DNA of 64,000 nt. Origin: Candidatus Tagabacteria bacterium. Lineage in GTDB: Bacteria; Patescibacteriota; Minisyncoccia; GCA-002779875. Positions 3,076-52,948 of this stretch are shown here, one piece after another (positions within the stretch are counted from its first letter, which is position 1; each line of letters starts with the position of its first letter). The DNA is taken from NCBI GenBank assembly GCA_963820595.1, contig CAWGAO010000005.1, forward strand, positions 3,853 through 67,852, given 5' to 3'. The notes under the pieces are model-generated. The model was not told the origin of the DNA. It saw only the letters and a program-made list of their open reading frames with translations, and ran no database searches. A program made the translations under genes and the position numbers.

Positions 3076-4224
3076 ATGTATAGCCATATGAAAAAAATTT
3101 TACTTTTGCTAAGTCTGTGTGCGATTTTTTTTCCTGCCTCGTCATTTGCTGCTTATTTTAAGACGGGCAGCGGCGTGTTCGTAAACTCGTCGGAAACAAT
3201 ACGGGATAATGTCTACGTTGTAGGCGGAAACGTAGCCGTCTCAAGCGCGATAGACGGAGATATTTTTGCGGCAGGCAGCATGCTTTTCATTTCCGGCAAA
3301 GAGAATGGGGATATTACGGCGGTCGGCGGAACCGTAAATATTGCCGGCGCATCGGCTGAAGACATCCGTCTTATCGGAGGAAACGTGACCATAGGAGGAA
3401 ATTTTAGCGGCGAAGTCATGGTAATCGGAGGGCAAATTATGGTTACGCCGGATACGCAAATCAAGAAAGATTCGCATATAATCGGGGGAATGCTCAGTTT
3501 TAGCGGGAACGCATCGGGCAATTTATCCATGTCGGGCGGGACGATATACATAAACGGCACCATTGAAAAAAATTTGACGATCAAAACCGCAAAAAAAGTG
3601 GTAATCGGTTCAGGCGCGGTGATAAAAGGCAATTTGGAATATTCCGCCCTCTCGGAAGCTTCCATTGAAGAGGGTGCGCAAATACTCGGGATTACCACAT
3701 TTCACAAAATAGAAAAGGCGGGCGCCGGCAGAAATTCCGGTGCTGTGTTCGGATTTTTATTCGGATTATTCGCCTTGTCGTATTTAATTAAATTATTATT
3801 GATTCTTACTGCCACTTATCTTCTGTGGTATATCTGGAGAAAGGATTCGGCTGATATCGTTCGGTTGGCAAAATCGCATTTCGGCCATTCTCTTTTCCGG
3901 GGATTTGTTTTTCTCGTCGCCGTGCCGGCGGCGGCCATTATATCTCTTGTCACCGTTATCGGGGCGTTCGCCGGATTATTCGGCCTTCTGCTCTATGCGG
4001 CAATTCTTATTCTTGCCGTTCCGGTTGCGGTGTTGCTCGCAGCTTCTTTACTTATGAAAAATAGGGCTGATTTCAAGTGGTTCCATATTCTTCTCGGCGC
4101 GGTAGTGTTAATGGCGGTAAACATAATTCCTTTCGTTGGCTGGATTGCCGCGCTAATTGTGTATCTTGCCGCGTTGGGAGCACTGCTTGGCGTTTTACGG
4201 CCCAAATTCCAGCGTTCCGCCTGA
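3076..4224 (+). CDS. membrane protein with signal peptide, bactofilin-like (polymer-forming) beta-helical repeats and a C-terminal multi-TM region
   Basis: N-terminal MKKILLLLSLCAIFFPASSFA. Repeated G-x-V/I-x-I-x-G units (GDITAVGGTVNIAG, IRLIGGNVTIGG, VMVIGGQIMV). Four to five C-terminal hydrophobic helices. Confidence 0.45.
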   Translation: MYSHMKKILLLLSLCAIFFPASSFAAYFKTGSGVFVNSSETIRDNVYVVGGNVAVSSAIDGDIFAAGSMLFISGKENGDITAVGGTVNIAGASAEDIRLIGGNVTIGGNFSGEVMVIGGQIMVTPDTQIKKDSHIIGGMLSFSGNASGNLSMSGGTIYINGTIEKNLTIKTAKKVVIGSGAVIKGNLEYSALSEASIEEGAQILGITTFHKIEKAGAGRNSGAVFGFLFGLFALSYLIKLLLILTATYLLWYIWRKDSADIVRLAKSHFGHSLFRGFVFLVAVPAAAIISLVTVIGAFAGLFGLLLYAAILILAVPVAVLLAASLLMKNRADFKWFHILLGAVVLMAVNIIPFVGWIAALIVYLAALGALLGVLRPKFQRSA

Positions 4225-5743: not shown

Positions 5744-5840
5744 TAATTTTACGAGGTAGAACCATAGCGAGACGCTTCGCGCAAAAGGCCTGCCTGCCGG
5801 CAGGCAGGGATGCGCTATTCGCGCCCGCGCCTCGCGAGAC
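5744..5840. repeat. partial copy (H) of the GC-rich palindromic element core
   Basis: About 88% identical by eye to the reverse complement of 15197-15302. Contains ACCCCGCCCTAATTTTAC and the 20-bp perfect palindrome CCTGCCTGCCGGCAGGCAGG (5789-5808). Confidence 0.85.
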
Positions 5841-5920
5841 AGAATTAAGTTTCATTTTTTTTGTTTAAATTCAAATCCGTTTCCAACGGTAAAATTAAAG
5901 CGGGATTAAAGATTTTATTT

Positions 5921-7156
5921 ATGAAATTAATTGCCGACTTTCATATTCATTCAAAATATTCGCGGGCGGTTTCTCAAGATATGACCTTGGAGAATCTTGA
6001 TATTTGGGCGCGGAAAAAAGGAATTCAGGTGATGGGCACGGGCGATTTCACTCATCCCGCATTGGTTTAATGACATTAAAACAAAACTCGAACCGGCGGA
6101 GCCCGGACTTTAATCCGATATCCTAAAGTCGAACGAAGCGTCGGGACTAAATCAGACTTCGACGCGTTTTATGCTTACGGTCGAGATTTCCAGCATTTAT
6201 TCAAAAGGCGGAAAAGTACGGCGCGTGCATAATATTATTTTCTGCTCCATCTATTGAAACTGCGGAAAAAATTAATACAACTTTATCTTTAATCGGTAAT
6301 ATAAAAAGCGACGGCCGGCCTATTTTAGGCCTTGATTCGAAAAAACTTCTTCAGATAATTCTTGGAATTGACCCGAGATGCGTTTTAGTGCCAGCCCACG
6401 CCTGGACGCCGTGGTTTTCAATATTCGGCTCGATGTCCGGGTTCGATTCTATCGAAGAATGTTTTGAGGAATTGAGCGGAAACATTTTTGCCATTGAAAC
6501 AGGGCTTTCGTCGGACCCGGCAATGAATTGGCGGCTTTCAAAACTGGACAAAATCGCGCTAATTTCCAATTCCGATTCCCATTCGCCGCAAAAAATCGGC
6601 AGGGAAGCGAATGTTTTTGACTGCGAACTTTCCTATGACGGGATAATTGATGCAATCAAATCTCATGACCCTGAAAAATTTCTTTTCACTATTGAATTTT
6701 TCCCCGAAGAAGGAAAATATCATTACGACGGCCACCGGGCTCTGCAACGTTTCGATGTCGCCGGAAGAAACCAAAAAAAACAAAGGCATTTGTCCCGTTT
6801 GCCATCGGCCTTTGACTATCGGCGTTTTGTATCGGGTTGATCAAGTTGGCCGACAGACCGGTTGGAGAAGGCGGAAACGGAAAAATTCCTTTTCGAAATC
6901 TGATTCCTTTGAATGAAATTATAGCCGACATTTTTGGATTTGGCGTCGCTTCAATGGCAATTAGAAAGGAATACGAAAAACTTATCAACGCCGTCGGGAA
7001 TGAGTTCAAAATTTTACTGGATGCCGATTATCAGACGCTTAGCAGGGTAACTTCGCTGGCTATCGCCAGGGCATCGTCAGCGTACGCGAAGGGAAAGTCG
7101 AACTGATTCCCGGCTACGACGGCGAATACGGTAAAATTAAAATGTTTAAAGGATGA
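5921..7156 (+). pseudogene. endonuclease Q-like PHP-domain nuclease, multiply frameshifted
   Basis: Pieces lie in three frames. They are MKLIADFHIHSKYSRAVS..GTGDFTHP (5921-6070), PAHAWTPWFSIFGS..SDSHSP..GKYHYDGHRA (6388-6840), CPVCHRPLTIGVLYRV, 6837-7106, and the C-terminal IPGYDGEYGKIKMFKG* (TGA 7154-7156). At least 5 frame changes. Confidence 0.7.
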
Positions 7157-7198
7157 GAAGGAAAAAACAACCAGTCCCATCAATCCCGCCTCTTTTAG

Positions 7199-7394
7199 AA
7201 AAATAAGGAGCCCCGACGTAAGGCGGGACGACTATATTTTTCTTACCCCCTCACTCAAATTTTCATTTAGTTCCTAAGTAATTATTAAATTTAAAAATTA
7301 ATACTCGATTAAAAATGATTTTTTTGAGATAATTTTGATTATGAGTGAGGGGGTGCTCAAAATTATTATTCACTAACGTTCATATAATTTTGGC
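7199..7394 (+). repeat. modular palindromic intergenic element, copy A (M + long C5/G5 stem + M')
   Basis: M is GAAAAATAAGGAGC-ccgacgtaaggcggga-CGACTATATTTTTC (7199-7242). The stem is CCCCCTCACTCA (7246-7257) paired with TGAGTGAGGGGG (7342-7353). M' (7354-7394) ends at the ATG at 7395. Confidence 0.9.
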
Positions 7395-8054
7395 ATGAAT
7401 ATAAAAAAGTTTTTCTTGCCGATAAATAAAATTATTAAGGTTTTGATGTTGTCCGACTTTATTATTATTTCGGCTTTTGGGTTTGTGGCGCCGATTTTTG
7501 CCCTTTTTCTTACCGATAAAATTCAAGGCGGAACGATAGAAACCGTCGGTTATGCCGCGGCTATTTATTGGGTTGCGGCAGTTTTAACCCGTTTGCCTAT
7601 TGCCAGACGTATAGATAAAACCAAATCGGAAAAAGATGACTTCTATTTTATGATTTTCGGCTCTATTTTGATTGCTGTCGTGCCTTTTCTTTGGATTTTT
7701 AGCACTAAAATTTGGCATATTTATTGCATTGAAGCGCTTTACGGTTTGGGATATTCTTTGCGTCTTCCGGGTTGGTATGGTATGTTTACCCGCCATATCG
7801 ATAAGGGTCACGAAGGTTACGAATGGAGTTTCGATTCTTTGGTGTCCGGTGTCGGTTCCGGCATTACGGCGGCTTTGGGCGGAATTATGGCTGCAAGGAT
7901 GGGTTTCAATGCTTTATTCATTGTTATCGGAGCTCTTTCGATTATCGGTTCGGCTGTTTTAATTTTTCTTTATTATATCGTCGAGCCGGATCACCGGCGC
8001 AATGATAATATTCCGGGTTTAAGTTTAAATAATGATGGAGATAAAAAACAATAG
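7395..8054 (+). CDS. six-TM MFS-like half-size transporter
   Basis: 219 aa with six hydrophobic helices. The loop motif RLPIARRIDK resembles the MFS D-R-x-G-R-K-type loop. Confidence 0.4.
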   Translation: MNIKKFFLPINKIIKVLMLSDFIIISAFGFVAPIFALFLTDKIQGGTIETVGYAAAIYWVAAVLTRLPIARRIDKTKSEKDDFYFMIFGSILIAVVPFLWIFSTKIWHIYCIEALYGLGYSLRLPGWYGMFTRHIDKGHEGYEWSFDSLVSGVGSGITAALGGIMAARMGFNALFIVIGALSIIGSAVLIFLYYIVEPDHRRNDNIPGLSLNNDGDKKQ

Positions 8055-14903: not shown

Positions 14904-15095
14904 TTAGCGAATATAAGGCAATAGTTGTTTTAATTGTTTTCTGCTGATTTTAAGTTCCCTCCATTTTTTCGAGGCAAGCTCTTTTTTCCTTTTTTTCTTC
15001 GCCCGAAAATGAATTAAGCCGCCTTTACGGATTAATACTTTTCCTTTGCGCGTTATTTTTACGCGCTTTAATAATGCTTTGTTGGTCTTTGCCAT
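14904..15095 (-). CDS. rpmI: 50S ribosomal protein L35
   Basis: 63 aa, highly basic (MAKTNKALLKRVKITRKGKV). Position is between infC and rplT. Confidence 0.9.
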   Translation of the reverse strand: MAKTNKALLKRVKITRKGKVLIRKGGLIHFRAKKKRKKELASKKWRELKISRKQLKQLLPYIR

Positions 15096-15302
15096 TTTTA
15101 TTATGAGCGGAGCGAATTATAAAAATGAGCACCCCGCTCTAATTTTACCGTTAAAATCAAAATTGTCATTTATTGAACTAAAGAACCTATTTTAATCTCG
15201 CGAGGTGCGGGCGCGAATAGCGCATCCCTGCCTGCCGGCAGGCAGGCTTTTAGCGCGAAACGCCTCGCCGTTGTTCTATCTTGTAAAATTAGGGCGTGGG
15301 TT
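15096..15302 (-). repeat. modular palindromic intergenic element, copy G (between infC and rpmI)
   Basis: M' abuts the rpmI ATG (sense: GGGGTGCTCATTTTTATAATTCGCTCCGCTCATAATAAAAATG). Outer stem is 15130-15148 paired with 15283-15302 (CCCCGCTCTAATTTTAC / GTAAAATTAGGGCGTGGG). The GC-rich core carries CCTGCCTGCCGGCAGGCAGG (15227-15246). Confidence 0.9.
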
Positions 15303-15318
15303 GCCCTCCTTTTAGCCC

Positions 15319-15900: not shown

Positions 15901-16208
15901 TAGCCCCGTACAAATTTTGCGAGATTTGCCTACAAGTCCTCAAAAATCATAGTCGCTTCACTCCTTGATTTTTGGGCTCGCAGGCCGCCCCTCGCCCCGC
16001 CTGCGGCGGGGCTGCGGTCTTCAAATCTCGCTCCAGCTATTCGTGAAAAAGTAGCCCCAGCACAGCAGTTTGCGAGATTTTTCACCGGCAAGCCGCTTCG
16101 CCCTTAAGGGATGTGCCTATTCGGCACGCGCGGCTTGCGAAAGAAATTCTTACTTAGTGATATTGCAATAATTTTTGTAAAAACAATATGGCAAACTGTG
16201 TGCGGGGC
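15901..16208. repeat. compound nested-hairpin repeat region (J) downstream of tmRNA
   Basis: Direct repeat GTAGCCCC(g/a)..TTTGCGAGATTT at 15901-15930 and 16051-16086. Hairpins at 15920-16031, 15995-16013, 16088-16138 and 16054-16208. Confidence 0.8.
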
Positions 16209-16257: not shown

Positions 16258-16269
16258 GCGAATTCACTT

Positions 16270-16614
16270 TGGAGATGGCGAGATTTGAACTCGCGTCAAG
16301 AAGTTAAATGCATTATCGTCTACAAGCTTGTTTCGGTTGAATAAGATTGCGGTTAGAACCGAAAGAAAAACGCAAAATTTTTCCTTCTTTTTAGTCGCTC
16401 TATATCGAAGGTTTATAGAGTCTAGCCCGATAATGACGTCTCGGTCTTTCTATCGTGCATCAAAAGAGAGACGGCTTTTGCTTAAATTTTAAGCAAAAGC
16501 GTAAGCAGGTTGATTCACTGCATTTACATTTGTTGAACGGATTTTAAAGAGGTAACCGATCATCCTCTGCCTGCGAATAACGCATTTTGACTCCCTTCGA
16601 AGCCTTTCATCCCC
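16270..16614 (-). ncRNA. ssrA: tmRNA (SsrA)
   Basis: 5' end GGGGAUGAAAGGCUUCGAAGGG, 3' end GACGCGAGUUCAAAUCUCGCCAUCUCCA. The acceptor stem has a G3:U pair. Tag ORF GCA GUG AAU CAA CCU GCU UAC GCU UUU GCU UAA encodes AVNQPAYAFA*. A helix (GCUUUUGCUUAAA/UUUAAGCAAAAGC) spans the stop. It lies next to smpB. Confidence 0.85.
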
Positions 16615-18321: not shown

Positions 18322-18531
18322 TTTCTAAGGTGGGCGACCCCGCACAAATTTTGCGGGATAAATTAATGGCAGACCGCTGCGCCCAAAAAGGATGAAGCTA
18401 TTCGCTTCCCGCGGTCTGCGAGAGCAAAAATTTATTATTTTATTAAAGGTTTAATTTATAGCGTGAGGGGGTGGCAAAATTTGAGCGGGGTGCTCATTTT
18501 TGCGACTACTCGCTGACGCTTGCAGGCAAAA
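18322..18531 (+). repeat. modular palindromic intergenic element, copy I (secE-nusG gap)
   Basis: Outer stem is GACCCCGCACAAATTTTGC (18336-18354) paired with GGCAAAATTTGAGCGGGGTG (18473-18492). Inner stem is GCAGACCGC/GCGGTCTGC (18369-18377/18411-18419). An M'-like tail (CTCATTTTTGCGACTACTCGCT...) runs to ATG 18532. Confidence 0.85.
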
Positions 18532-19078
18532 ATGGCAAAACAAACATCGGAATTCGGGAGAAATTGGTACGCGGTGCATACCTACGCCGGTTACGAAGAT
18601 GCGGTTGCGCGCAATTTGAAGCAGCGCATCGAATCTTTGGGAATGGAAGACAAGATTTTTAACGTCTTGGTTCCTACCGAAAAGAAAATCCGTATTAAAG
18701 GAGGAAAGCGGAGAACGGTGGAAGAAAAAGTTTATCCCGGCTATGTTCTCGTTGAAATGATAGTCGCCGACGACTCCTGGTATATCGTGCGAAACACTCC
18801 TAGAGTTACTGGTTTCGTCGGTTCGGGCACTACGCCCATACCTCTCCAGAAAGAAGAGGTGGATATGTTGTTTCAGCGGATGGGAGCCAAAGAGCCGAAA
18901 TACAAGTTCGATATCGCGAGTCGGCGATACGGCCAGAATTTTTGACGGACCATTTAAGGATTTCGAAGGAAAAGTACACGCAATTGACGAAGAGCGCGGA
19001 AAGATAAAGGTTCTGGTTTCAATATTCGGCCGGGAGACGCCGGTTGAATTGGACTTTTTGCAGGTGAAAAAGATTTAG
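18532..19078 (+). pseudogene. nusG: transcription termination/antitermination factor NusG, one frameshift near 18925
   Basis: MAKQTSEFGRNWYAVHTYAGYE (NGN domain) runs to 18945. The KOW part, [52 protein letters not shown], is in another frame and ends with TAG at 19076-19078. Confidence 0.85.
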
Positions 19079-19150
19079 AAAAATAAGGAGCGATAGCGAC
19101 TATATTTTTCGTAAAAAATTATTATTCACTAACGTTTATATAATTTTGGC
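19079..19150 (+). repeat. modular palindromic intergenic element, minimal copy B (M directly abutting M')
   Basis: AAAAATAAGGAGCgataGCGACTATATTTTTC is followed by GTAAAAAATTATTATTCACTAACGTTTATATAATTTTGGC, then the ATG of rplK. Confidence 0.9.
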
Positions 19151-19577
19151 ATGGCAAAGAAGATTAAAACAATAATAAAACTTCAGATTCCCGCCGGAAA
19201 AGCGAATCCCGCCCCTCCGGTCGGGCCGGCTTTGGGCCAGCACGGCCTCAATATTGGCGAGTTCGTTTCGAGATTCAATGAAGCTACAAAGGAGATGGGA
19301 GATGATATTATTCCCGTTGAAATCACGGTTTATGAAGACCGCACTTATCAGTTTAAACTGAAAACCCCGCCAGCATCGGATTTATTGCGCAAAGCAGCCG
19401 GCATCGAAAAGGGCGCAAGCAACCCTTTAACTTCCAAAGTCGGAAAAATATCAAAGGCCAAAATTCGTGAAATTGCCGAACGAAAAATGGAAGATTTGAA
19501 CGCCAACGATATCGATGCGGCGCAAGAAAATTATAATGGGCACCGCGCGGAGTATGGGGATAGAGATTAAAGATTAA
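19151..19577 (+). CDS. rplK: 50S ribosomal protein L11 (frameshift about 50 nt before the end)
   Basis: [32 protein letters not shown] is canonical. After about 19525 the conserved C-terminus [15 protein letters not shown] is in the +1 frame and ends at 19577. Confidence 0.9.
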
Positions 19578-19670
19578 GCATGTTCCGATTCTGGCTTTGT
19601 CAGAATCGAGAGTCCTCGATTTCGTAAGGCGAAATCGGGAGGAATTGAAATCAAGGATTAAAATTTTTTC

Positions 19671-19699
19671 TTGACGAAAATTACAAAGCCTGCTATACA
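19671..19699 (+). promoter_or_regulatory. candidate sigma70-type promoter
   Basis: TTGACG-17 nt-TATACA. Confidence 0.5.
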
Positions 19700-19719
19700 A
19701 ATAGCGGGTTTTATTTTTT

Positions 19720-19783
19720 GTCCCGACGCTTCATTGTAGTTCTTTTAAAATAAAGAAGTCGGGATCCCGGCTTTACGTCGGGA
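19720..19783. repeat. 64-bp palindromic repeat, copy 1 (inverted partner at 44650-44713)
   Basis: GTCCCGACGCTTCATTGTAGTTCTTTTAAAATAAAGAAGTCGGGATCCCGGCTTTACGTCGGGA matches the reverse complement of 44650-44713 at 59/64 positions. Confidence 0.9.
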
Positions 19784-19889
19784 AAAACCCGAAAATTCTG
19801 GCGGAAAATCTGCGGATTTTCTAAGCCGGGCTCTTTCCGTGCGCGGAGAGAGAATCTACTCGCGTCTGTGGACGCAAAAGGAGGAGTTT

Positions 19890-20967
19890 ATGGAAGAGAA
19901 GGAAGAAGGGAAAGGAAAGTGTCCTAGTTTGTTGGCAGATTATCTTTTCGGCAGAATGTCGCCAGAAGAACGACTCAAAGTTTTGCAAGAAATTTTTATG
20001 ATGGCGGAAACAAAAAAACATAATGACGACGTGGCAACAAAATTGATAAACATGATTTACAATGAATATTCAGAAATAGAAAACGGAGATTGCCGGAGAA
20101 ACTGATCGTGATTATGGCCATGCTGCTATGCGCGCCTACTCCAAAAATTGCGACTATTTTAAAGATGTTTATTGGCAATTCCCAGAAAATTTAGGCAGAA
20201 GGTCGATAAATTGTAGCGATTTGATTAATTATCCAACTTTAATCCAGACAAAATTGGAAATAATCAGATTGTGGATGAGGCAGTGGCAGAGATATGCCTG
20301 CGATTTTCAAGATAAAGATGAAGAAGCTATTGAGGCATTTCGTTTTTTAATCTCCGCTTATACGGGGAAACTCGAAGACGATATAGAAGTAAGTCTTTAT
20401 GTTTCTCAAGACGAGAAAGAGGGCATCCTTAAACTTTTCCGCGAATATACGGATTCCAGCTTTACTCCGGAAATTGCCGAAAAATGGTTGAAGCAGCCGA
20501 ATGTGCCTGAAGAAATTAGGAAGATTTTCAGAATGGCCTGGATACGGAACGGCGGGCAGGAACTATTTGACCGCTGTATGAAAAACGCCGAACTCTTGAA
20601 ACCGCTTGATGTGGAAAATCGTTCGGAAGCTGAATTGGAATTCTGTCAAAAGTTTTTTAGAGAGCTGGAAAAAGTCGGCGGCAGGGTCCAAAAATTGATA
20701 AAGGAACTTAAGGAAGGCCCTTGTCTGAAAGCGGAAAAATTTGAGGCAATTTTTCACAAATTGGATGATATTACGCTTCATATCCATTACAAAAAAGAGG
20801 ATTTAATTTCCGACTCAGTGGTGCGGAAATTTATTCAAGACATTCGTTCTTTTGTTTCGCAATGCAAAAGTGGACGTTATGCCGAGATTTGGTTTATTTT
20901 ATGGGGAGATCAAGCGCAGAGAGATCATGTGGCGAATTTCAAGGAGATGGTTTATTTCGGCCCTTAA
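19890..20967 (+). pseudogene. hypothetical protein of about 359 aa, one frameshift near 20085
   Basis: AAAGGAGG SD and ATG at 19890. ORF 19890-20105 continues as EIAGETDRDYGHAAMRAYSKNCDYFKDVYW in the frame of ORF 20128-20967. Confidence 0.4.
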
Positions 20968-26569: not shown

Positions 26570-27013
26570 ATGGGCAGTAAACCCAAGCAAATACAAAATT
26601 CAAAAGGCGTACAAATGCATTTTGCTGTCGGGGCGGTGATTGAAGTCGCCGGAAAATATTTATTGATTGACCGCGACATGGAGCCATTCGGCTTTGCCGG
26701 AATTGCCGGTCATATTGACGAAGGAGAAACTCCCGAAGAAGCACTTTTCCGCAAAGTAAAAGAAGAGAGCGGCTTAAAAATTGAAAGCTATTCCTTGCTT
26801 TTTGAAGAAGAAGTTGAATGGAATTGGTGCAGAGTAGGAATCCAATCTCACTATTGGTATATGTATAAATGCGAAGTTGAAGGGAAGGCGCAAAATAATC
26901 CGGAAGCATCTAAGTCTATCGGATGGCATACTACGGAGGAGATTAGAACATTAAAAATGGAGCCGGTATGGAAATACTGGTTTGAAAAACTAGGCATTTT
27001 AACAAAAACGTAA
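26570..27013 (+). CDS. NUDIX hydrolase (cargo 2 at the argS/dedA junction)
   Basis: Nudix box GHIDEGETPEEALFRKVKEESGL (GX5EX7REUXEEXGU). AAGGAGG SD. Confidence 0.85.
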   Translation: MGSKPKQIQNSKGVQMHFAVGAVIEVAGKYLLIDRDMEPFGFAGIAGHIDEGETPEEALFRKVKEESGLKIESYSLLFEEEVEWNWCRVGIQSHYWYMYKCEVEGKAQNNPEASKSIGWHTTEEIRTLKMEPVWKYWFEKLGILTKT

Positions 27014-28214: not shown

Positions 28215-28247
28215 AAAGTCCGTTTGAAAAACTTGAACGGACTTTTT
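28215..28247 (+). terminator. rho-independent terminator
   Basis: AAAGTCCGTT-tgaaaaacttg-AACGGACTTT followed by TT. Confidence 0.7.
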
Positions 28248-28253
28248 AATTTT

Positions 28254-28483
28254 CCAAAAATTAAGAAAGTCGCTTTTATGCGACCGACTATAATTTTTGA
28301 GAACCCCGCTCTAATTTTGCCGTAGATGTTTCAATAAAGGTTTAACAAATCTAAAAAGGCCGAGTTGTTCTCATGGCGCAGAGCCGAAATAGGCCGAGCG
28401 AAGCGAGTGCGCCACCGTAGCAATATTTCGCAAAATTAGGGCGGGGTTGAAAGGGCTGTTAAATTAAGTACTATTAACATTAT
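28254..28483 (+). repeat. modular palindromic intergenic element, copy F (upstream of ileS)
   Basis: M-like CCAAAAATTAAGAAAGTCGCttttatGCGACCGACTATAATTTTTGAG. Stem is AACCCCGCTCTAATTTTGC (28301-28320) paired with GCAAAATTAGGGCGGGGTT (28430-28448). The tail runs to ATG 28484. Confidence 0.85.
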
Positions 28484-31400
28484 ATGCAAGGAAAGGAGGA
28501 AAAATTAAGTTTTCCCGAGCGGGAAGAGAAGATTTTGGAGTTCTGGAAAAAGAACAAGATTTTTGAAAAATCCGTTGAGCAGAGGAAGGGCGAAAAAGAA
28601 ATTCGTTTTTTACGAAGGCCCGCCGACGGCCAACGGCCAGCCAGGCATTCACAGCATGGAAGCGCGTGTTTTTAAAGATATTGTTTTGCGCTATAAAGCA
28701 ATGCGGGGATTTTATTGCAAGCGAAAAGCCGGCTGGGACACCCACGGTTTGCCCGTAGAAATCCAGGTTGAAAAAGAACTTGGTTTAAAAAATAAAAAAG
28801 AAATTGAGGAATATGGCATTGAAAAATTTATAGAGAAATGCAAGGAAAGCGTTTGGCGTTACAGGAATGAGTGGGAAAATACTGACATACCGGATGGCTT
28901 ACTGGCTGGATATGAAAAACGCTTACGCGACAATGACGAACGATTACATCGAAACTCTTTGGTGGATTTTCAAAGAGATCGACAAGCGAAAATTGCTTTA
29001 CGAGGATTATAAAATCGTTCCTTGGTGTCCGCGTTGCGGAACCGCTCTTTCTTCGCACGAGGTCAGCCAGGGTTATCGCAAAATAAAAGAAGATTCCGTT
29101 TATATAAAATTTCCCGTGAAAGGAAGACCGAATACTTATTTTTTGGTTTGGACAACTACGCCCTGGACATTGCCGTCCAATGTTGCTTTGGCGATAAATC
29201 CCAAAATAACGTATACCATAATCGAAAAAGACGGACGAGCGCTTGATTTTGGCGAAAAATCGCCTTTCCGTTATCGATGGTGAATACAGGATTGGCGAAG
29301 AAAAACCGGGAACTGATTTAATCGGCAGAGAGTATGACCCCTTATACTCGCGGAGCGCTTAACCCAGACCAAGTCGAGGGGCTTATAAAATTTATGCCGC
29401 GGATTTTGTTTCCGCTGACGACGGCACGGGTATTGTCCATATTGCTCCGGCTTTCGGCGAAGACGATATGAAACTGGGCAAAGCGAATAATCTCCCGGTT
29501 TTAAGTCTTGTCGACGAAGAAGGAAAAATGCTGACGCCGAATTACAAATGGAACGGAATGTTTATCAAAGACGCCGACCCGTTGATTGTCGAAGATTTGC
29601 GCCAAAGAAATCTTCTTTATAAAACCGAAAGCTACGAGCATGATTATCCTTTTTGCTGGCGCTGCGACAGTCCTTTGATGTATTATGCCAAAACTTCCTG
29701 GTGGCTGAAGACAACAGGCGTAAAACAGCAGATGATTAAGGAAAATAAAAAAATTCACTGGCACCCGGATTATTTGAAAGACGGCCGTTTCGGCGAATGG
29801 CTGAACGAGTTGCGGGATTGGGCGATTTCGCGCGAGCGTTATTGGGGAACGCCGCTTCCGATATGGCGATGTCCTGATTGCAAGCGTTACGAAGTTATCG
29901 GCTCAAGAGAAGAGTTGAAGAAAAAAACCGTGAAATCGGGAAACAATTATTTTTTGATGAGGCATGGATTTTCGGAAGCCAATCAGAAAAATATCAATAA
30001 TTCAAATATCGAAACAAATCATTACAAACTGACTCCAAAAGGCAAAAAAGAAGTTTTGAAAGCGGCCCAAAAATTGAAAGAAGCAAAAAATAGATTTGAT
30101 TTTCTCCTCCGATTTTTTGAGAACAAAGGAAACGGCGCTGTTGGCGGCTGAAACTTTGGGCATTCCAGAAAAGGATGTTGTTTTTGACGAACGATTGCGC
30201 GAAATAAATACGGGAATTTTCGACGGAAAATCCCGCGCCGAATATCACAAATATTTTTCTTCGCTTCTGGAAAAATTCACCAAAACCCCGCCTCAAGGCG
30301 AAAATTTAACCGAATTGAAAAATCGCATCACGCAGTTTTTGTATGAAATAGAAAATAAGTACAAAGGTAAAAACATTTTGATTGTCAGCCATGAATATCC
30401 GATTTGGATGTTAACTGCGGGAGCAAAAGGAATGACTAACGAGGAAGCGGTGGCGACTAAAGGGGAAAAAAGACGATTTTATTAAAACAGCCGAAGTTAT
30501 GAAACTGGATTTTACGCCTTTGCCTCATGACAAGAATTTTGTTTTGGATTTTCACCGGCCATATATAGATAAAATCATATTGAAATGCGACAAATGCGGC
30601 GGCGACATGATTCGCATTAAAGATGTTTGTGATGTTTGGTTTGATTCCGGTTCGATGCCGTTCGCCCAAAATCACTTTCCATTTTCTATCCCTAAAAAAA
30701 ATTTACTCTATCCGGCGGACTATATTTGTGAAGCGATTGACCAGACAAGAGGGTGGTTTTATACGCTGCTTGCGGTTGCGATTTTGTTGGGACGAAAAGC
30801 GCCTTATAAAAACGTGCTTTCTTTGGGTTTGGTTTTGGACGCCGAGGGGCAAAAAATGTCAAAATCGCGCGGCAACGTGGTGGTGCCAGGAGAATTGATG
30901 AACAAATACGGCGCCGATGCGGTGCGCTGGTATTTTTATACCATCAATCAGCCGTGGGACGAAAAATTATTTAAAGAGGAGGATGTCCAGGCGGCTTTGC
31001 GAAGATTTATTTTGATTTTTTGGAATTGCTTTTCCTATTGGAAAATGTACGCGGGTAAAAATTTTAAAATCAATCCGCCAGCTGGCGGACCCAAATTGGT
31101 TATCAATAAATGGCTGCTGGCGAAATTTAATCAAATTGCCTTAGAAGTTCCCAAATTACTCGATAATTACGATATCGTTTCAGCGGCGCGGTTGATAGAA
31201 GATTTTGTAATTGAAGATATCTCTCATTGGTATATTCGCCGCATGCGCGGAAATAACTGAAAAATTCCGGTTCCCGAGAAGCCAAAGAAATAAATGCGGT
31301 TTTGGGCCAAGTGATTATGGACACAGCAAAATTACTTGCGCCGTTTATGCCTTTTGTTTCAGAAACGGTTTACCGGGAAACGGGCGGGAAAAAGAAAAGC

Positions 31401-33987: not shown

Positions 33988-34560
33988 GTGTCTTATCATA
34001 TTTATCAAACCGAGGGGATCATTCTCGGAAAAAATGATGTCGGCGAAGCGGACCGCCGTTTCAGTATTTTGACGGCTGAATTCGGCCGGATAGACGCGGC
34101 GGCGCAAGGCGTGCGTTATCTCAAATCCAAACTTCGCTATAGTCTCGATATTTTCGTCCATGCGAGATTGGGGCTCGTAATGACGAGGGAAGATTCTTGG
34201 CGAATCGTTGATGCCGAAGAATTAAACAGCTGGTCGCAAATTCGCGCGAATCCCGAAAAATTGGCCGCGGCTTTCCGGATTGCCGATTTAATCAATCGGA
34301 TGGTGCGAGGCCAGGAATCTGATGCCGTCCTTTGGGAGGAGGTTAAAAAATCTTTTATTTTTTTGGAGCAAGCCAAAGATTCGGATGACAAAAAAATATT
34401 GCAGGCTTTCGAACTGCTGACGCAGTTGAAAATTCTTTCCCATTTGGGATATGTGGCCGAACAAGATAAATGGCTGAATATGCCGCTTGAAGAGGCTCAA
34501 AAAAAAGAATCTTTGATGGTATCCACAATCAACAAAGCCATCGAAGAAAGTCAGCTTTAG
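33988..34560 (+). CDS. recO: DNA repair protein RecO (short form, GTG start)
   Basis: YQTEGIILGKNDVGEADRRFSILTAEFGRIDAAAQGVR is typical of the RecO N-terminal OB fold. Confidence 0.8.
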   Translation: MSYHIYQTEGIILGKNDVGEADRRFSILTAEFGRIDAAAQGVRYLKSKLRYSLDIFVHARLGLVMTREDSWRIVDAEELNSWSQIRANPEKLAAAFRIADLINRMVRGQESDAVLWEEVKKSFIFLEQAKDSDDKKILQAFELLTQLKILSHLGYVAEQDKWLNMPLEEAQKKESLMVSTINKAIEESQL

Positions 34561-34772
34561 AAAAATAATGAGCCCTGCCTGCCGGCAGGCAGGGAAGCGA
34601 CTATATTTTTCTTAACCCCCATCTTTTACACCCGACCATTTTAAGGTTAATATTAAAGATATTCTATGATGCAAACTTTTATGCAAACTTCAATGTTGTA
34701 TATATTCTGGTCGGTGTTAAAAGAGGGGGTGATAATTTTATAAAATTCACTTCGTTCGCTAGTAAAATTATC
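34561..34772 (+). repeat. modular palindromic intergenic element, copy C
   Basis: M is AAAAATAATGAGC-CCTGCCTGCCGGCAGGCAGG-GAAGCGACTATATTTTTC. Stem is CCCCCATCTTTTACACCCGACCA (34616-34638) paired with TGGTCGGTGTTAAAAGAGGGGG (34708-34729). M' runs to ATG 34773. Confidence 0.9.
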
Positions 34773-39587: not shown

Positions 39588-40630
39588 GTCCCGATAAAAA
39601 AGATAACTTTAAAATTGAGATTACTACCGGCACAATTATCCGCGTCTTTCTTTTGGCATTGTTGGTGGTTTTTCTTTATCTTTTGCGTCACATTTTGGCT
39701 ATATTCCTGTTCGCCGTGGTAATCGCTTCTGCCATTGAACCGGTTGCCCACTGGGGCAAGCGTCATCATATCCCCCGGGTTTTATCGGTTATAGGTATTT
39801 ACGTTGGCGCCATCGGTTTGCTGAGTATGGTTTTTTACCTGATTATTCCTACTCTCTTTTCGGAGTTTCTTGATTTTGTAAATAACATTTCTTCCGGATT
39901 GGTCGCGAAATCTCAAATTCAAACCTTATTCGGTTTGGTGCCAAATTTGCCGGAAGCCCTTTCCGGAGCGTTGGTACAGCTCTTTGTCGGTTTGCAGGGC
40001 ACGATTGAAAATTTTACTTCCGGATTTTTTGAAACTGCCGCTACCGTTTTCGGAGGAGCTTTTTCTTTAATTTTGATTGTGGTAGTTTCCTTTTATTTGT
40101 CGGTTCAAGAGCACGGCATCGAAAAGTTCCTAAGGATAGTTGTGCCGGCTAAATATGAAAATTATATTCTTGATCTCTGGCTTCGTTCCCAGTACAAAAT
40201 AGGACGTTGGCTTCAGGGCCAGATTTTGCTTGGAGTTTTGTTGGGCGTTTTAGTTTTTCTTGGTTTGACGATTTTGGGCATCAAGTACGCGTTGATGCTC
40301 GCAATACTGACGGCCGTATTCTCATTGATTCCCCTCTTCGGTTCAATTTTATCGGCTTTGCCGGCTGTCGGTATCGCTTTTCTTCAGAGCCCTTCCCTGG
40401 CATTGGTAGTTATCGTTTTGTATATTATTATCCATCAATTTGAAAGCCATCTTATTTATCCGGTTGTAATGAGGCAGATAATCGGCGTACCTTCCATTTT
40501 GGTAATACTTGCCATGATTATCGGCGGGACGCTTGGCGGGCTCTGGGGCATTATTTTAGCCGTTCCCGTAACTGCCGTTGTCATTGAATTTCTAAACGAT
40601 GTTTCCGCCAAGAAGCAGTCTCTAATTTAA
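39584..40630 (+). CDS. AI-2E family transporter (PerM/UPF0118)
   Basis: 348 aa with about 8 TM helices. Family-typical LIPLFGSILSALPAVGIAFL and IYPVVM segments. 4-nt overlap with the upstream gene. Confidence 0.75.
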   Translation: MSPDKKDNFKIEITTGTIIRVFLLALLVVFLYLLRHILAIFLFAVVIASAIEPVAHWGKRHHIPRVLSVIGIYVGAIGLLSMVFYLIIPTLFSEFLDFVNNISSGLVAKSQIQTLFGLVPNLPEALSGALVQLFVGLQGTIENFTSGFFETAATVFGGAFSLILIVVVSFYLSVQEHGIEKFLRIVVPAKYENYILDLWLRSQYKIGRWLQGQILLGVLLGVLVFLGLTILGIKYALMLAILTAVFSLIPLFGSILSALPAVGIAFLQSPSLALVVIVLYIIIHQFESHLIYPVVMRQIIGVPSILVILAMIIGGTLGGLWGIILAVPVTAVVIEFLNDVSAKKQSLI

Positions 40631-40632
40631 AG

Positions 40633-40808
40633 GAAAAATAAGAAGCGTTAGCGATTATATTTTTCCCAACCCCCTCTTTTACACCCAAATATTCTTTTTA
40701 TAGCTATATGTAAAAACCAAAAATAATTACTGAAATTGACATTAGATTAAAATTTTGGGGTTAAAAGAGGGGGTTCTCATAAATTATATTCGTTTCGCTC
40801 ATTAATTT
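40633..40808 (+). repeat. modular palindromic intergenic element, copy D
   Basis: M is GAAAAATAAGAAGCgttaGCGATTATATTTTTC. Stem is CCCCCTCTTTTACACCC (40670-40686) paired with GGGGTTAAAAGAGGGGG (40757-40773). M' (TCTCATAAATTATATTCGTTTCGCTCATTAATTT) runs to ATG 40809. Confidence 0.9.
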
Positions 40809-42233
40809 ATGGAAAAATTCTACGTTACAACTGCTATTGATTATGTAAACGCGGCGCCTCATTTGGGTCATGCTCTCGAAAAGACGCAGGCGGATATAAT
40901 AGCGCGATACCAAAGGCTTCTAGGAAAAGACGTCTTTTTTTTGACGGGCACCGATGAACACGGCGCAAAAGTTGCTAAAGCGGCAGCACTTCAGAATAAA
41001 GAGCCGGAAGATTTTGTCGATGAAATCGTTGAGAATTACAAAAAGCTGGTCAAGGAATTAAATATTTCAAACGATGATTTTATCAGAACCTCGGATAAAG
41101 CCCGCCACTGGCCCGGCGCCGAGGCGCTTTGGAAAAAACTCGCCGCCAAAGGAGATATTTATAAGGCTAATTATAAAGGTCTTTATTGCGTTGGATGCGA
41201 AGCGTTTATTACAAAAAAAGATTTAGTCAACGGAAAGTGCGCGATTCATAATCAGGAACCGGAAGAGATAAATGAGGAAAATTATTTCTTTAAATTATCG
41301 GCATATCAGGAAAAGATTAAAAGCGCCATAACTTCCGGAAGGTTGAATATTATTCCCGAATCGAGAAAAAACGAAGTGCTCGGGATGATTGCCGTAGGAT
41401 TAGAAGATGTTAGTTTTTCAAGGCCGGCAAAAGATATTCCTTGGGGCATTCCGGTGCCGGGCGACAAATCGCAAACGATGTATGTCTGGGCCGACGCCTT
41501 AACAAATTACATTTCCGCTCTCGGCTACGGCTCAAAAGATGAATCAAAATTTAAAAAATATTGGCCTGCCGACGTTCAGGTAATCGGCAAGGACATTTTG
41601 CGCTTCCATGCTTTGATTTTGCCGGCGATGCTTATTTCGGCTGGCATTGAATTGCCGAAAAATATTCTTGTGCACGGTCACCTTACGGTTGATGGCAAAA
41701 AAATGTCCAAATCTTTGGGTAATGTCATTGATCCGTTTGACCTTATCGCGCGGTACGGTACTGACGCGGTGCGTTATTATTTGTCCCGCGAAATTTTGAC
41801 AGCCGAAGACGGGGACATCACCGAGGAAAAATTTAAAACTGCGTATAACGCTAATTTGGCGAACGGCTTGGGAAATCTGGTAAGTAGAATTATGAAGATG
41901 GCCGCGAGCTACCTTGAAGTTTGCCCGGAGTTGCCCGAGAAGTCTATCCCCGAAAACTTTATCGAAGCCTTGGCTAATTATGAAATTAATAAAGCAGCCG
42001 ATATTATTTGGCGAAAGATTGGCGAATTAGACGGTAAAATTCAAACAACAGAGCCGTTCAAATTAATCAAAACCGACAAAGAAGCGGCTATTAAAATTGT
42101 TAAAGAGCTGGTTATTGACCTCTATACCATTGGTCGGATGCTCAATCCGATTATGCCGGCGACTTCGGCCATCATCAAATCGACGGTCAAATCCAACAAA
42201 ATGCCCGAACCGCTGTTTGTAAGAAAAGAATAA
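40809..42233 (+). CDS. metG: methionyl-tRNA synthetase (short form)
   Basis: AIDYVNAAPHLGHALEK (HIGH-type motif) and KMSKSLGN. Confidence 0.95.
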   Translation: MEKFYVTTAIDYVNAAPHLGHALEKTQADIIARYQRLLGKDVFFLTGTDEHGAKVAKAAALQNKEPEDFVDEIVENYKKLVKELNISNDDFIRTSDKARHWPGAEALWKKLAAKGDIYKANYKGLYCVGCEAFITKKDLVNGKCAIHNQEPEEINEENYFFKLSAYQEKIKSAITSGRLNIIPESRKNEVLGMIAVGLEDVSFSRPAKDIPWGIPVPGDKSQTMYVWADALTNYISALGYGSKDESKFKKYWPADVQVIGKDILRFHALILPAMLISAGIELPKNILVHGHLTVDGKKMSKSLGNVIDPFDLIARYGTDAVRYYLSREILTAEDGDITEEKFKTAYNANLANGLGNLVSRIMKMAASYLEVCPELPEKSIPENFIEALANYEINKAADIIWRKIGELDGKIQTTEPFKLIKTDKEAAIKIVKELVIDLYTIGRMLNPIMPATSAIIKSTVKSNKMPEPLFVRKE

Positions 42234-52626: not shown

Positions 52627-52833
52627 TTAGTGGCTGACGAAAGGCAGGAGGCCCATGATGCGGCTGCGTTTTATCGCTTTGGCGAGTTTCCGCTGGTGTT
52701 TCGCGCAGACATCGCTTCTTTTTCTCGCGACAATTTTTGCTTGCGGATCTATGAAGCGTTTCAGCGTTTCAACGTCGGTATATTCGATTGTTCTTACGTT
52801 ATTTGTGCAAAAATAACAGTTTCTTTCTGCCAT
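52627..52833 (-). CDS. rpsR: 30S ribosomal protein S18
   Basis: MAERNCYFCTNNVRTIEYTDVETLKRFI... The start was chosen at the ATG at 52833 rather than at the ORF-track start. Confidence 0.9.
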   Translation of the reverse strand: MAERNCYFCTNNVRTIEYTDVETLKRFIDPQAKIVARKRSDVCAKHQRKLAKAIKRSRIMGLLPFVSH

Positions 52834-52948
52834 AATTTCCAAAAAATAAAGAGCGAAGCGATTATATTTTTTGAGAACCCCGCCTTTGGCGGGGTTAAGG
52901 TTTTGCAACCACGATTTGTCGCTTCATTCCAAATCGCGGGCAAATTCC
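52834..52948 (-). repeat. modular palindromic intergenic element, copy E (ssb-rpsR gap)
   Basis: Sense strand: AACCCCGCCaaaGGCGGGGTT followed by CTCAAAAAATATAATCGCTTCGCTCTTTATTTTTTGGAAATT and then the ATG of rpsR. An extra hairpin lies at 52911-52938. Confidence 0.85.

Follow-up and report, generated by a model that had tools for sequence, protein, structure and literature searches.

The 72 nt that separate nusG from rplK in a Candidatus Tagabacteria genome are probably the most reduced, open reading frame (ORF)-less derivative of a mobile cassette encoding a GIY-YIG nuclease. The spacer lies in a 64,000-nt stretch of contig CAWGAO010000005.1 (hereafter the window), in which a first-pass annotation had noticed that rplK and an unrelated transporter gene share the same upstream sequence. 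We refer to the nusG–rplK spacer as copy B, and to its counterpart ahead of the transporter gene as copy A. Direct support for this origin comes from family membership, hairpins with covariation, the absence of the element at orthologous sites in relatives, and the presence of intact GIY-YIG elements at the same junction. The sequence identity of the spacer, i.e., its mobile-element origin, is well supported, whereas its effect on rplK is not.

A hairpin element repeated ahead of unrelated genes

The shared 39-mer, AAAATTATTATTCACTAACGTTYATATAATTTTGGCATG, has exactly two occurrences in the window (7359–7397 and 19115–19153), with 38/39 identical positions and the Y position (C or T) as the sole difference. 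Dinucleotide-preserving shuffles of the window yielded no match (0/100), so that chance or low complexity was rejected as its source; together with the two occurrences, this excludes a common low-complexity AT-rich sequence, which the first-pass annotation had considered as an alternative. The match between the two spacers is thus confirmed, and the similarity is larger than had been claimed. Further upstream, in what the annotation called the M block, TTAGAAAAATAAGGAGC (at 7195 and 19075) and GACTATATTTTTC (at 7230 and 19098) are identical at 17/17 and 13/13 positions, and the whole 72-nt nusG–rplK spacer therefore corresponds to copy A without its two internal hairpins. As described, TATAAT (7383–7388 and 19139–19144) ends 6 nt before the ATG (7395 and 19151) in each copy, and Pfam matches bear out the identity of the downstream genes: copy B is followed by L11 (Ribosomal_L11_N and Ribosomal_L11), and copy A by a 219-aa MFS_1 protein from a conserved stand-alone family of ~212 aa.

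Each copy is a chain of hairpins that spans from the upstream stop codon to the downstream ATG (Table 1). H1, equivalent to M, is made of GAAAAATAAGGAGC, either a short loop or a long GC-rich hairpin, and GCGACTATATTTTTC, its outer arms pairing with each other. H3, equivalent to M', has AT-rich arms that vary among copies yet remain complementary, around a conserved loop core TTC(A/G)(C/T)T-n-CG(C/T)T; in copy B, the TATAAT is the 3' arm of this hairpin. Between the two lies H2, an optional long stem-loop, of which copy B has no trace beyond a gap of GTA, as the annotation had stated. Its broader view of a shared modular repeat with a dispensable middle and copy B as the minimal M+M' form also held up, and copy B appears to be the most reduced, ORF-less derivative in the window.

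A covariance model of H1 (R1) detected eight matches with E<1e-3 in the window, on both strands (plus strand, 7189, 19069, 28247, 34556, 40624, and 52832; minus strand, 15932 and 40769). Copy B H1 scored 56.5 bits (E=1.6e-8), while the top-scoring H1 of the window was that of copy F (64.8 bits). Copy D was matched twice, by its H1 on the plus strand (52.2 bits) and by its H3 on the minus strand (37.7 bits, the match at 40769), and an alignment of H1 with reverse-complemented H3 copies (A1) revealed a common core, GAGCG-A-AGCGA(C/A)TAT, between runs of A and T. This shared core and the opposite-strand match of copy D identify H3 as an inverted, diverged H1; the two hairpins are thus the terminal inverted repeats of the element. 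The H3 of copies A and B are more diverged from H1, with 15.7 bits or no match with the H1 model.

Intact relatives, empty sites, and distribution

In three other contigs of the candidate phyla radiation (CPR), the same nusG|rplK junction carries a full element (L060, L135, and L202), so that this junction is occupied in four genomes including the window. The intact layout consists of H1, a stem H2 enclosing an 85–89-aa GIY-YIG nuclease gene, and H3, the latter observed in two of the three contigs. L060 has H1 at 1533–1561 and the ORF at 1592–1861, followed by H3 and the rplK ATG; its junction reads TAG, H1, CTTAACCCTGTTAAAT…, an 89-codon ORF with …ATTTAACAGGGT inside its 3' end, TAA, TTCACTTCGTTCAT…, and the rplK ATG. 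The order is NusG-H1-ORF (2501–2758)-H3-L11 in L135, and NusG-H1-GIY-YIG-L11 in L202. Overall, H1-H2(ORF) was found in L060, L105, L116, L135, and L202, with H3 seen in the four checked for it (L060, L105, L116, and L135), and a second recurrent site lies upstream of nusA (L116, L140, L143, and L174).

The ORF matches the Pfam GIY-YIG domain (PF01541) with E-values from 3e-15 (the L060 ORF) to 8e-19, its nearest solved structure is the UPF0213 protein 1ZG2, and our alignment (A3) shows no variation in the columns of the catalytic-type residues Tyr, Gly, Arg, His, and Glu. The protein resembles UPF0213/YhbQ/YazA and consists of a bare catalytic domain with no obvious DNA-binding part. A metagenome scan returned at least 595 relatives of this ORF, and with few exceptions among the 80 loci kept, the ORF follows CCCTGTTAAAT and has ATTTAACAGGG at its end, the two sequences forming a stem around the gene. 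All 22 significant H1 matches at these loci (22/22) are on the strand of the ORF, 15/22 of them 25–80 nt upstream of it, and in Poriferihabitaceae inverted H1-type units stand on either side of the ORF. Searches of phage and plasmid collections returned distant matches to "GIY-YIG nuclease family protein" only. Separately, five non-CPR metagenome contigs (L150, L154, L157, L163, and L175) carry the same GIY-YIG ORF with the CCCTGTTAAAT stem and an SD-like (Shine-Dalgarno-like) cttGAGGt, without H1, and by eye this ORF appears to sit inside another coding sequence that reads through on both sides.

A GIY-YIG nuclease is encoded by the full-length relatives only. As the window contains no such ORF, and GGGGTGCTCA ahead of H3 in the window is homologous to the ORF end GGGGTGATGA of the full-length elements, the window copies would be internally deleted derivatives, and the central stem-loop appears to be an ORF-less remnant of the cargo region. 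The first-pass annotation had proposed that this stem-loop is optional or insertable: dispensable it is, but comparison with the full-length relatives points to a remnant rather than an inserted module.

The annotation had also proposed comparing the nusG–rplK spacer among related genomes. In the closest relatives available (~85% L11 identity, annotated as Candidatus Tagabacteria), it measures 3–4 nt, with junctions TGA-att-ATG, TAA-ttt-ATG, or TAG-aatt-ATG in L001–L009 (for example the element-free AAGATTTAGAATTATGGCAAA), against TAG + 72 nt + ATG in the window. Between the PHP-type gene and the MFS gene, L209/L211 have …ctcttcTAG + 30 nt + ATG, and the window has the homologous …ctcttTTAG (7196–7198) + 196 nt + ATG, the H1 of copy A beginning at this ancestral TAG of the upstream PHP/MJ0043_C-type gene. 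Likewise, secE|nusG is 10 nt in L007 and ~210 nt in the window, and infC|rpmI is 1 or 10 nt elsewhere and 223 nt in the window. Across 53 kb of DNA from the closest relatives, R1 detected no significant H1 (best E=0.14). The window elements thus appear to be insertions relative to the junctions of these relatives. The 72-nt and 196-nt elements replace the ancestral spacers exactly, from TAG to ATG; we propose that elements came to extend from stop to next start codon because the spacers they replaced were only 3–30 nt long.

Beyond the nuclease loci, a pattern scan with one genome per species identified at least 119 loci. Among the matches listed, the 30–35-nt H1 core, AAAAATAAGGAGC-n(2-4)-GCGACTATATTTTT, is near-invariant across CPR phyla (Saccharibacteria, Kaiser-, Campbell-, Vogel-, Taylor-, Adler-, and Kerfeldbacteria, and Paceibacterota), and is also present in Oscillospiraceae and in the gammaproteobacterial order Arenicellales. 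The latter harbors many H1 copies and ~210-nt arrays, along with a GIY-YIG ORF beside the H1 core, and the H1 of copy B is identical to Arenicellales copies at 35/35 nt. In these Arenicellales/Poriferihabitaceae arrays (L026, 2050–2800; L016, L046, L081, and L100), each tandem unit of ~210 nt includes the H1 core and two further long hairpins and is closed by GTCATTCTCGA…TCGAGAATGAC, and some array copies have an extra hairpin in the T run of H1, flanked by TTTTT.

Base pairing is conserved in both end hairpins. For H1, covariation extends to flank pairs that lie beyond the search pattern (GC 28, CG 11, and AU 8 for one; AU 25, CG 9, GC 4, and UA 3 for another), and 88.6% of flank cells are paired, compared to 42–57% with slid partners, a level reached in 0/500 shuffles. 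For H3, every cell of the inner 2-bp stem is paired (44/44), and both pairs show compensatory changes (GC 13 and AU 9; CG 17 and UA 4). H1 is also placed precisely: seven loci have an ORF of at least 80 codons ending at its TAG and four have one ending at its internal TAA, and in 12 loci it begins 1–2 nt past a tRNA or tmRNA gene on the same strand. This tRNA/tmRNA-linked form is found in many CPR genomes (L012, L017, L023, L053, L059, L098, L104, L123, and others), without a nuclease gene, and continues with a conserved hairpin GTAGGATGCCG…CGGCGCC, a repeat of the last 4–6 nt of the tRNA (e.g., CCACA), and an ordinary terminator; it could be a 3'-trailer element or the result of targeted insertion.

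The elements (window, copy B, an Arenicellales array, and four full-length elements) gave no match to Rfam 15 at gathering score or E<=5–10. In an intrinsic terminator scan, copy B H1, which has no GC-rich stem, was not called, and in copy A the only terminator-like signal was on the minus strand of the inner hairpin. Possible likenesses of the H1 internal loop (tandem sheared G-A, a UAA/GAN motif, a tetraloop receptor, a K-turn, or a Xer/dif-like site) were considered and dropped.

Mobility, rival explanations, and the effect on rplK

With A and B as two copies of one element, the near-identical stretch ahead of rplK and the MFS gene (38/39) would reflect recent copying, or gene conversion, between them within this genome, and not a regulatory sequence that evolved for these genes. 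Copy B would have kept the two end hairpins only, and copy A the end hairpins, the ORF-less H2, and an extra GC-rich hairpin inside H1. While the recurrence of the element at nusG|rplK in four genomes is homing-like, classical homing is insufficient for near-identical, ORF-less copies at non-homologous sites, which points to mobilization in trans or to gene conversion between copies. We suggest that the ends are mobilized in trans, either by the GIY-YIG protein itself or by a host pathway that it triggers.

Several observations weigh against this origin or limit it. The mobilizing role of the GIY-YIG protein is argued from its association with the ends, and the protein could be cargo; with no GIY-YIG ORF in the window, a source of the enzyme within this genome is an assumption. 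No consistent target-site duplication was found at copies A and B, L060, or L105, and the ancestral spacers (AATT; 30 nt) were replaced rather than split, which simple cut-and-paste insertion would not predict; short repeats (e.g., CCACA) flank the tRNA-linked H1 copies. A nuclease cassette does not account for the solitary H1 found directly downstream of tRNA and tmRNA genes. Intrastrand template switching can produce covariation in palindromes without selection, and the RNA fold of copy B is no better than that of shuffled sequences (z=-1.4). Finally, the genome and metagenome scans give lower bounds and used patterns derived from this window, so the frequencies are biased, and since the copies are related, counts do not represent independent events.

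Two other origins were considered. The hairpins could be units of the kind known as repetitive extragenic palindromes (REPs) and REP doublets (REPINs), or miniature inverted-repeat transposable elements (MITEs), moved by another enzyme, either a REP-associated tyrosine transposase (RAYT/Y1) or a DDE transposase, with the GIY-YIG gene as an unrelated selfish gene lodging inside. The extragenic palindromes just past stop codons, occurring as singlets, inverted doublets, and ~210-nt tandem arrays in Arenicellales, would fit this scenario, as would H1 alone after tRNA genes and the many non-CPR GIY-YIG loci with the CCCTGTTAAAT stem and no H1. We consider it improbable, as H1 invariably has the orientation of the ORF and stands a short, fixed distance away from it, the H1-ORF-H3 order recurs in CPR, the Poriferihabitaceae ORF lies between inverted H1-type units, and no transposase was noticed beside the units in the loci read, where no systematic scan was made. 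Alternatively, M+M' could be a non-mobile regulatory cassette evolved by the host (terminator, operator, or regulon promoter), in line with its conserved core sequence and conserved position relative to stop and start codons. This is very improbable and is already contradicted by the absence of M+M' from the same junctions and from 53 kb of DNA in relatives, the 35/35 identity in Gammaproteobacteria, the nuclease gene within intact copies, and the unrelated nature of the downstream genes (rplK, MFS, metG, rpmI, nusG, and ileS).

A mobile origin is compatible with all three ways in which the spacer might bear on rplK, i.e., as a promoter, as a coupling hairpin, or not at all. The first-pass annotation had set the lack of an SD sequence ahead of rplK and the MFS gene against its presence at many other genes. 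This contrast did not survive a survey of 59 window genes, in which only 10 had a 5-mer SD and 4 more a 4-mer, leaving 45 with no match. The reading that we rank slightly ahead of the other two is a neutral one: rplK may be expressed by read-through from secE–nusG followed by ordinary, SD-independent initiation at AUG, as for most genes here. Copy B lost both GC-rich hairpins, which fits this reading and may also explain how it is tolerated inside an essential operon.

A rather unlikely alternative is that H3 acts as a portable, outward-facing promoter with a -10 box only, starting transcription at or next to the A of the ATG and producing leaderless rplK and MFS mRNAs. Such a promoter would account for the need of the element to lie right against the start codon, and the perfect TATAAT 6 nt from the ATG in copies A and B, a canonical spacing for a leaderless start, is suggestive, along with the SD-independent initiation that seems normal for this genome. 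Among H3 copies from many genomes, 18/21 have an xAxxxT box (at least 4/6 matches to TATAAT) ending 4–7 nt before the ATG, but 12 of these 18 boxes are only 4–5 nt away, short for a start at the A, and three H3 copies (D, nusG, and L115) have no such box. The box also coincides with the A-rich 3' hairpin arm shared with H1 and is thus inherited, so that the copies are not independent. At the level of the window, TANNNT was found 6–7 nt upstream of the ATG in 9/46 genes against ~2 per position elsewhere, a weak excess in a loose test, and a stricter positional test of -10-like boxes gave no enrichment. A sigma-70 scan called no promoter at M', which has neither a -35 box nor a TG upstream of the -10 box, whereas strong TTGACA boxes mark those window promoters that were recognized by eye. 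In relatives, the MFS spacers without the element do carry a TAAAAT 7 nt before the ATG; rplK, which there lies 3–4 nt past nusG, has no need for its own promoter.

That H1 and H3 act as RNA coupling hairpins is unlikely too: each would place the stop codon at its 5' foot beside the sequence at its 3' foot, and a ribosome terminating at this stop would melt the helix and re-initiate at the AUG beyond, which would preserve the coupling of the 3–4-nt ancestral spacer. This is a structural reading throughout. It draws on the start of H1 at the stop codon, where the G of TAG pairs with a C, and on the ORF ends given above, on the predicted pairing, in full-length elements, of the GIY-YIG stop (UGA in GGGUGAUGA) with a UCA on the other side of H3, itself overlapping the next AUG, and on the ATGs of copies D, G, and nusG, which fall within the H3 stem. 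Both stems covary, with some G-U pairs included, and H1 always follows the direction of transcription (22/22 relative to the ORF and 12/12 after tRNA/tmRNA genes). Nonetheless, H1 after a tRNA or tmRNA gene cannot serve translation, several H1 copies follow intrinsic terminators instead of ORFs, and the copy B hairpins are AU-rich and, by the same z-score, no more stable than shuffled ones.

Combining these ideas, a bare 85–89-aa GIY-YIG protein could mobilize an undescribed class of hairpin-ended prokaryotic elements, including ORF-less copies in trans, by recognizing H1/H3 as folded DNA or RNA instead of a long linear site, with the ends serving as stop-to-start adaptors, either as coupling hairpins and/or through an outward -10 box. 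We put this forward tentatively, as a possibility with the balance against it. If true, adaptor ends would enable life within packed essential operons such as secE-nusG-rplK and infC-rpmI, and would explain why an identical 35-nt end is found in CPR bacteria and Gammaproteobacteria.

Literature searches by sequence string (H1 core and H2 arm) and by topic returned no description of the element, which is not proof of absence. Among known systems, free-standing GIY-YIG homing genes (phage T4 seg; "intronless homing") are similar in that a small co-oriented GIY-YIG gene lies between conserved genes and that the same junction can be filled (nusG|rplK in the window, L060, L135, and L202) or empty (L001–L009). 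Here, however, the catalytic domain lacks a DNA-binding domain, conserved hairpin inverted repeats enclose the gene, and there are ORF-less copies at many non-homologous sites, including the near-identical A and B, which homing alone cannot produce. In common with MITEs and modular repeats (Neisseria Correia, pneumococcal BOX A-B-C, and RUP), the elements are short, ORF-less, multi-copy, and intergenic, with an optional middle and terminal inverted repeats forming hairpins, and such repeats can affect the expression of neighboring genes; as for MITEs, a longer relative with the same ends encodes an enzyme, and filled and empty sites are both observed. Unlike in MITEs, the intact relative encodes a GIY-YIG nuclease instead of a DDE transposase, no consistent target-site duplication was found, and the 30–35-nt end is near-invariant across phyla, when the MITE families known so far are lineage-specific.

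REP/REPIN sequences with RAYT share the extragenic imperfect palindromes right after stop codons and their organization as singles, inverted doublets, and arrays. H1 differs in having no conserved GTAG-type 5' tetranucleotide (GTAGGATGCCG follows H1 in the tRNA-linked copies only), and the linked gene is a GIY-YIG nuclease, no Y1/RAYT having been noticed in the loci read, whose ORFs were not scanned systematically. Matus-Garcia et al. reportedly described, in 2012, "putative mobile promoters", i.e., homologous upstream regions before unrelated genes. The same sequence directly upstream of unrelated genes in one genome is what we observe as well, but here the shared sequence makes up one arm of a unit that resembles a transposable element and has a conserved hairpin, and any promoter activity of this sequence is putative. 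Taken together, the element is distinct from known kinds by its bare catalytic-domain nuclease, cross-phylum hairpin ends, lack of a consistent target duplication, and exact stop-to-start placement.

How mobile DNA persists in CPR/Patescibacteria genomes, which are small and dense with genes, is poorly understood. In the window, a selfish cassette and its ORF-less relics would fill the stop-to-start gaps of core operons (secE|nusG|rplK, infC|rpmI, and upstream of metG and ileS) while leaving these operons intact; if the ends supply expression signals, this would represent an insertion design that is naturally "operon-safe". The association of conserved hairpin ends with a minimal GIY-YIG nuclease, along with trans-mobilized ORF-less copies, would also add a nuclease family to the prokaryotic DNA-moving enzymes. 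More practically, these repeats account for many of the long "intergenic" regions, and of the upstream sequences shared between genes, in CPR metagenome-assembled genomes, and could mislead predictions of promoters, regulons, and noncoding RNAs in them.

Element coordinates and other features of the window

Table 1 Hairpin elements of the window and their parts; scores are for the H1 covariance model R1
Feature	Position	Strand	Description
Copy B, H1	19078–19110	+	GAAAAATAAGGAGC-GATA-GCGACTATATTTTTC; pairing starts with the G of the nusG stop TAG (19076–19078)
Copy B, linker	19111–19113	+	GTA, 3 nt where other copies have the central stem-loop H2
Copy B, H3	19114–19150	+	Arms AAAATTAT / ATAATTTT; loop core TTCAC-TAA-CGTT; rplK ATG at 19151
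Copy A, H1 with inner GC-rich hairpin (7212–7229)	7195–7242	+	46.8 bits
Copy A, central stem-loop H2	7243–7358	+	ACCCCCTCACTCA … TGAGTGAGGGGGT, then GCTC; ORF-less, putative cargo-region remnant
Copy A, H3 (M')	7359–7394	+	38/39 identical to copy B including ATG; MFS gene ATG at 7395
Copy C	34557–34772	+	Between recO (stop TAG 34558–34560) and gene 34773; 41.1 bits
Copy C, H1		+	With palindrome CCCTGCCTGCCGGCAGGCAGGG
Copy C, H2	34612–34730	+	
Copy C, H3	34731–34772	+	
Copy D	40628–40811	+	Between AI-2E transporter gene (TAA 40628–40630) and metG
Copy D, H1	40633–40665	+	
Copy D, H2	40668–40775	+	
Copy D, H3	40778–40811	+	Stem includes metG ATG
Copy E	28247–28455	+	Upstream of ileS; H1 variant AAAAATTAAGAAAGTCGC…GCGACCGACTATAATTTTT, long H2-type stem-loop; 35.3 bits
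Copy F	52832–52899	+	H1 and minimal H2 hairpin AACCCCGCC-TTT-GGCGGGGTT; without H3
Copy G	15093–15318	-	Between infC and rpmI; long H2-type stem-loop, H3, degenerate H1
Copy G, H3	15093–15127	-	CATTTTTAT…ATAAAAATG; includes rpmI ATG
secE–nusG spacer filling, element-derived	18322–18534	+	H2-type hairpins and H3-like hairpin
secE–nusG spacer, H3-like hairpin	18495–18534	+	CATTTTTGC…GCAAAAATG; includes nusG ATG (18532)
Extra H1 copy	15932–15982	-	Downstream of tmRNA gene; 34.7 bits

The extra H1 copy follows a tmRNA gene (16269–16614, minus strand; Rfam, 126.8 bits; tag AVNQPAYAFA) and ~290 nt of nested hairpins. A perfect palindrome, CCTGCCTGCCGGCAGGCAGG, occurs three times (5788–5807, 15226–15245, and 34573–34592), each time nested in an element hairpin, and looks like a separate small insertable palindrome. 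Two pairs of ~80-nt direct repeats with ~80% identity, neither related to the H1/H3 family, were also found: one (26369–26448/27043–27122) brackets gene 26570–27013, and the other (2903–2980/4296–4373) involves the 3' end of gene 1692–2975 and the spacer downstream of gene 3076–4224.

Several genes look damaged. nusG (18532–19078) is split by a frameshift into an N-terminal part, ending at TGA 18943–18945, and a KOW part (…LQVKKI*) in another frame, with 549 nt against 547 nt in the alignment to L001; the split is due to an error of sequencing or assembly, or else nusG is a pseudogene. The PHP/MJ0043_C-type gene (5861–7198) and ileS (28484–31260) are broken into several frames with internal stops, and in the former a TGA specific to the window (7154) lies in frame, 14 codons ahead of the ancestral TAG. 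An alternative genetic code was rejected for this TGA, as the upstream gene changes frame several times and the alignment with relatives shows local frame shifts. Apparent damage in several essential genes suggests assembly errors, and the frameshifts in nusG, ileS, and the PHP-type gene may be errors of the window sequence. Downstream of rplK (19571–20127), there is no rplA; GC-rich hairpins and a promoter-like site, TTGACG…TATACA, are followed by an ORF (20128–20967) with no significant Pfam match above the curated cut-off. In relatives, rplK is likewise followed by thyA/tmk and not by rplA.

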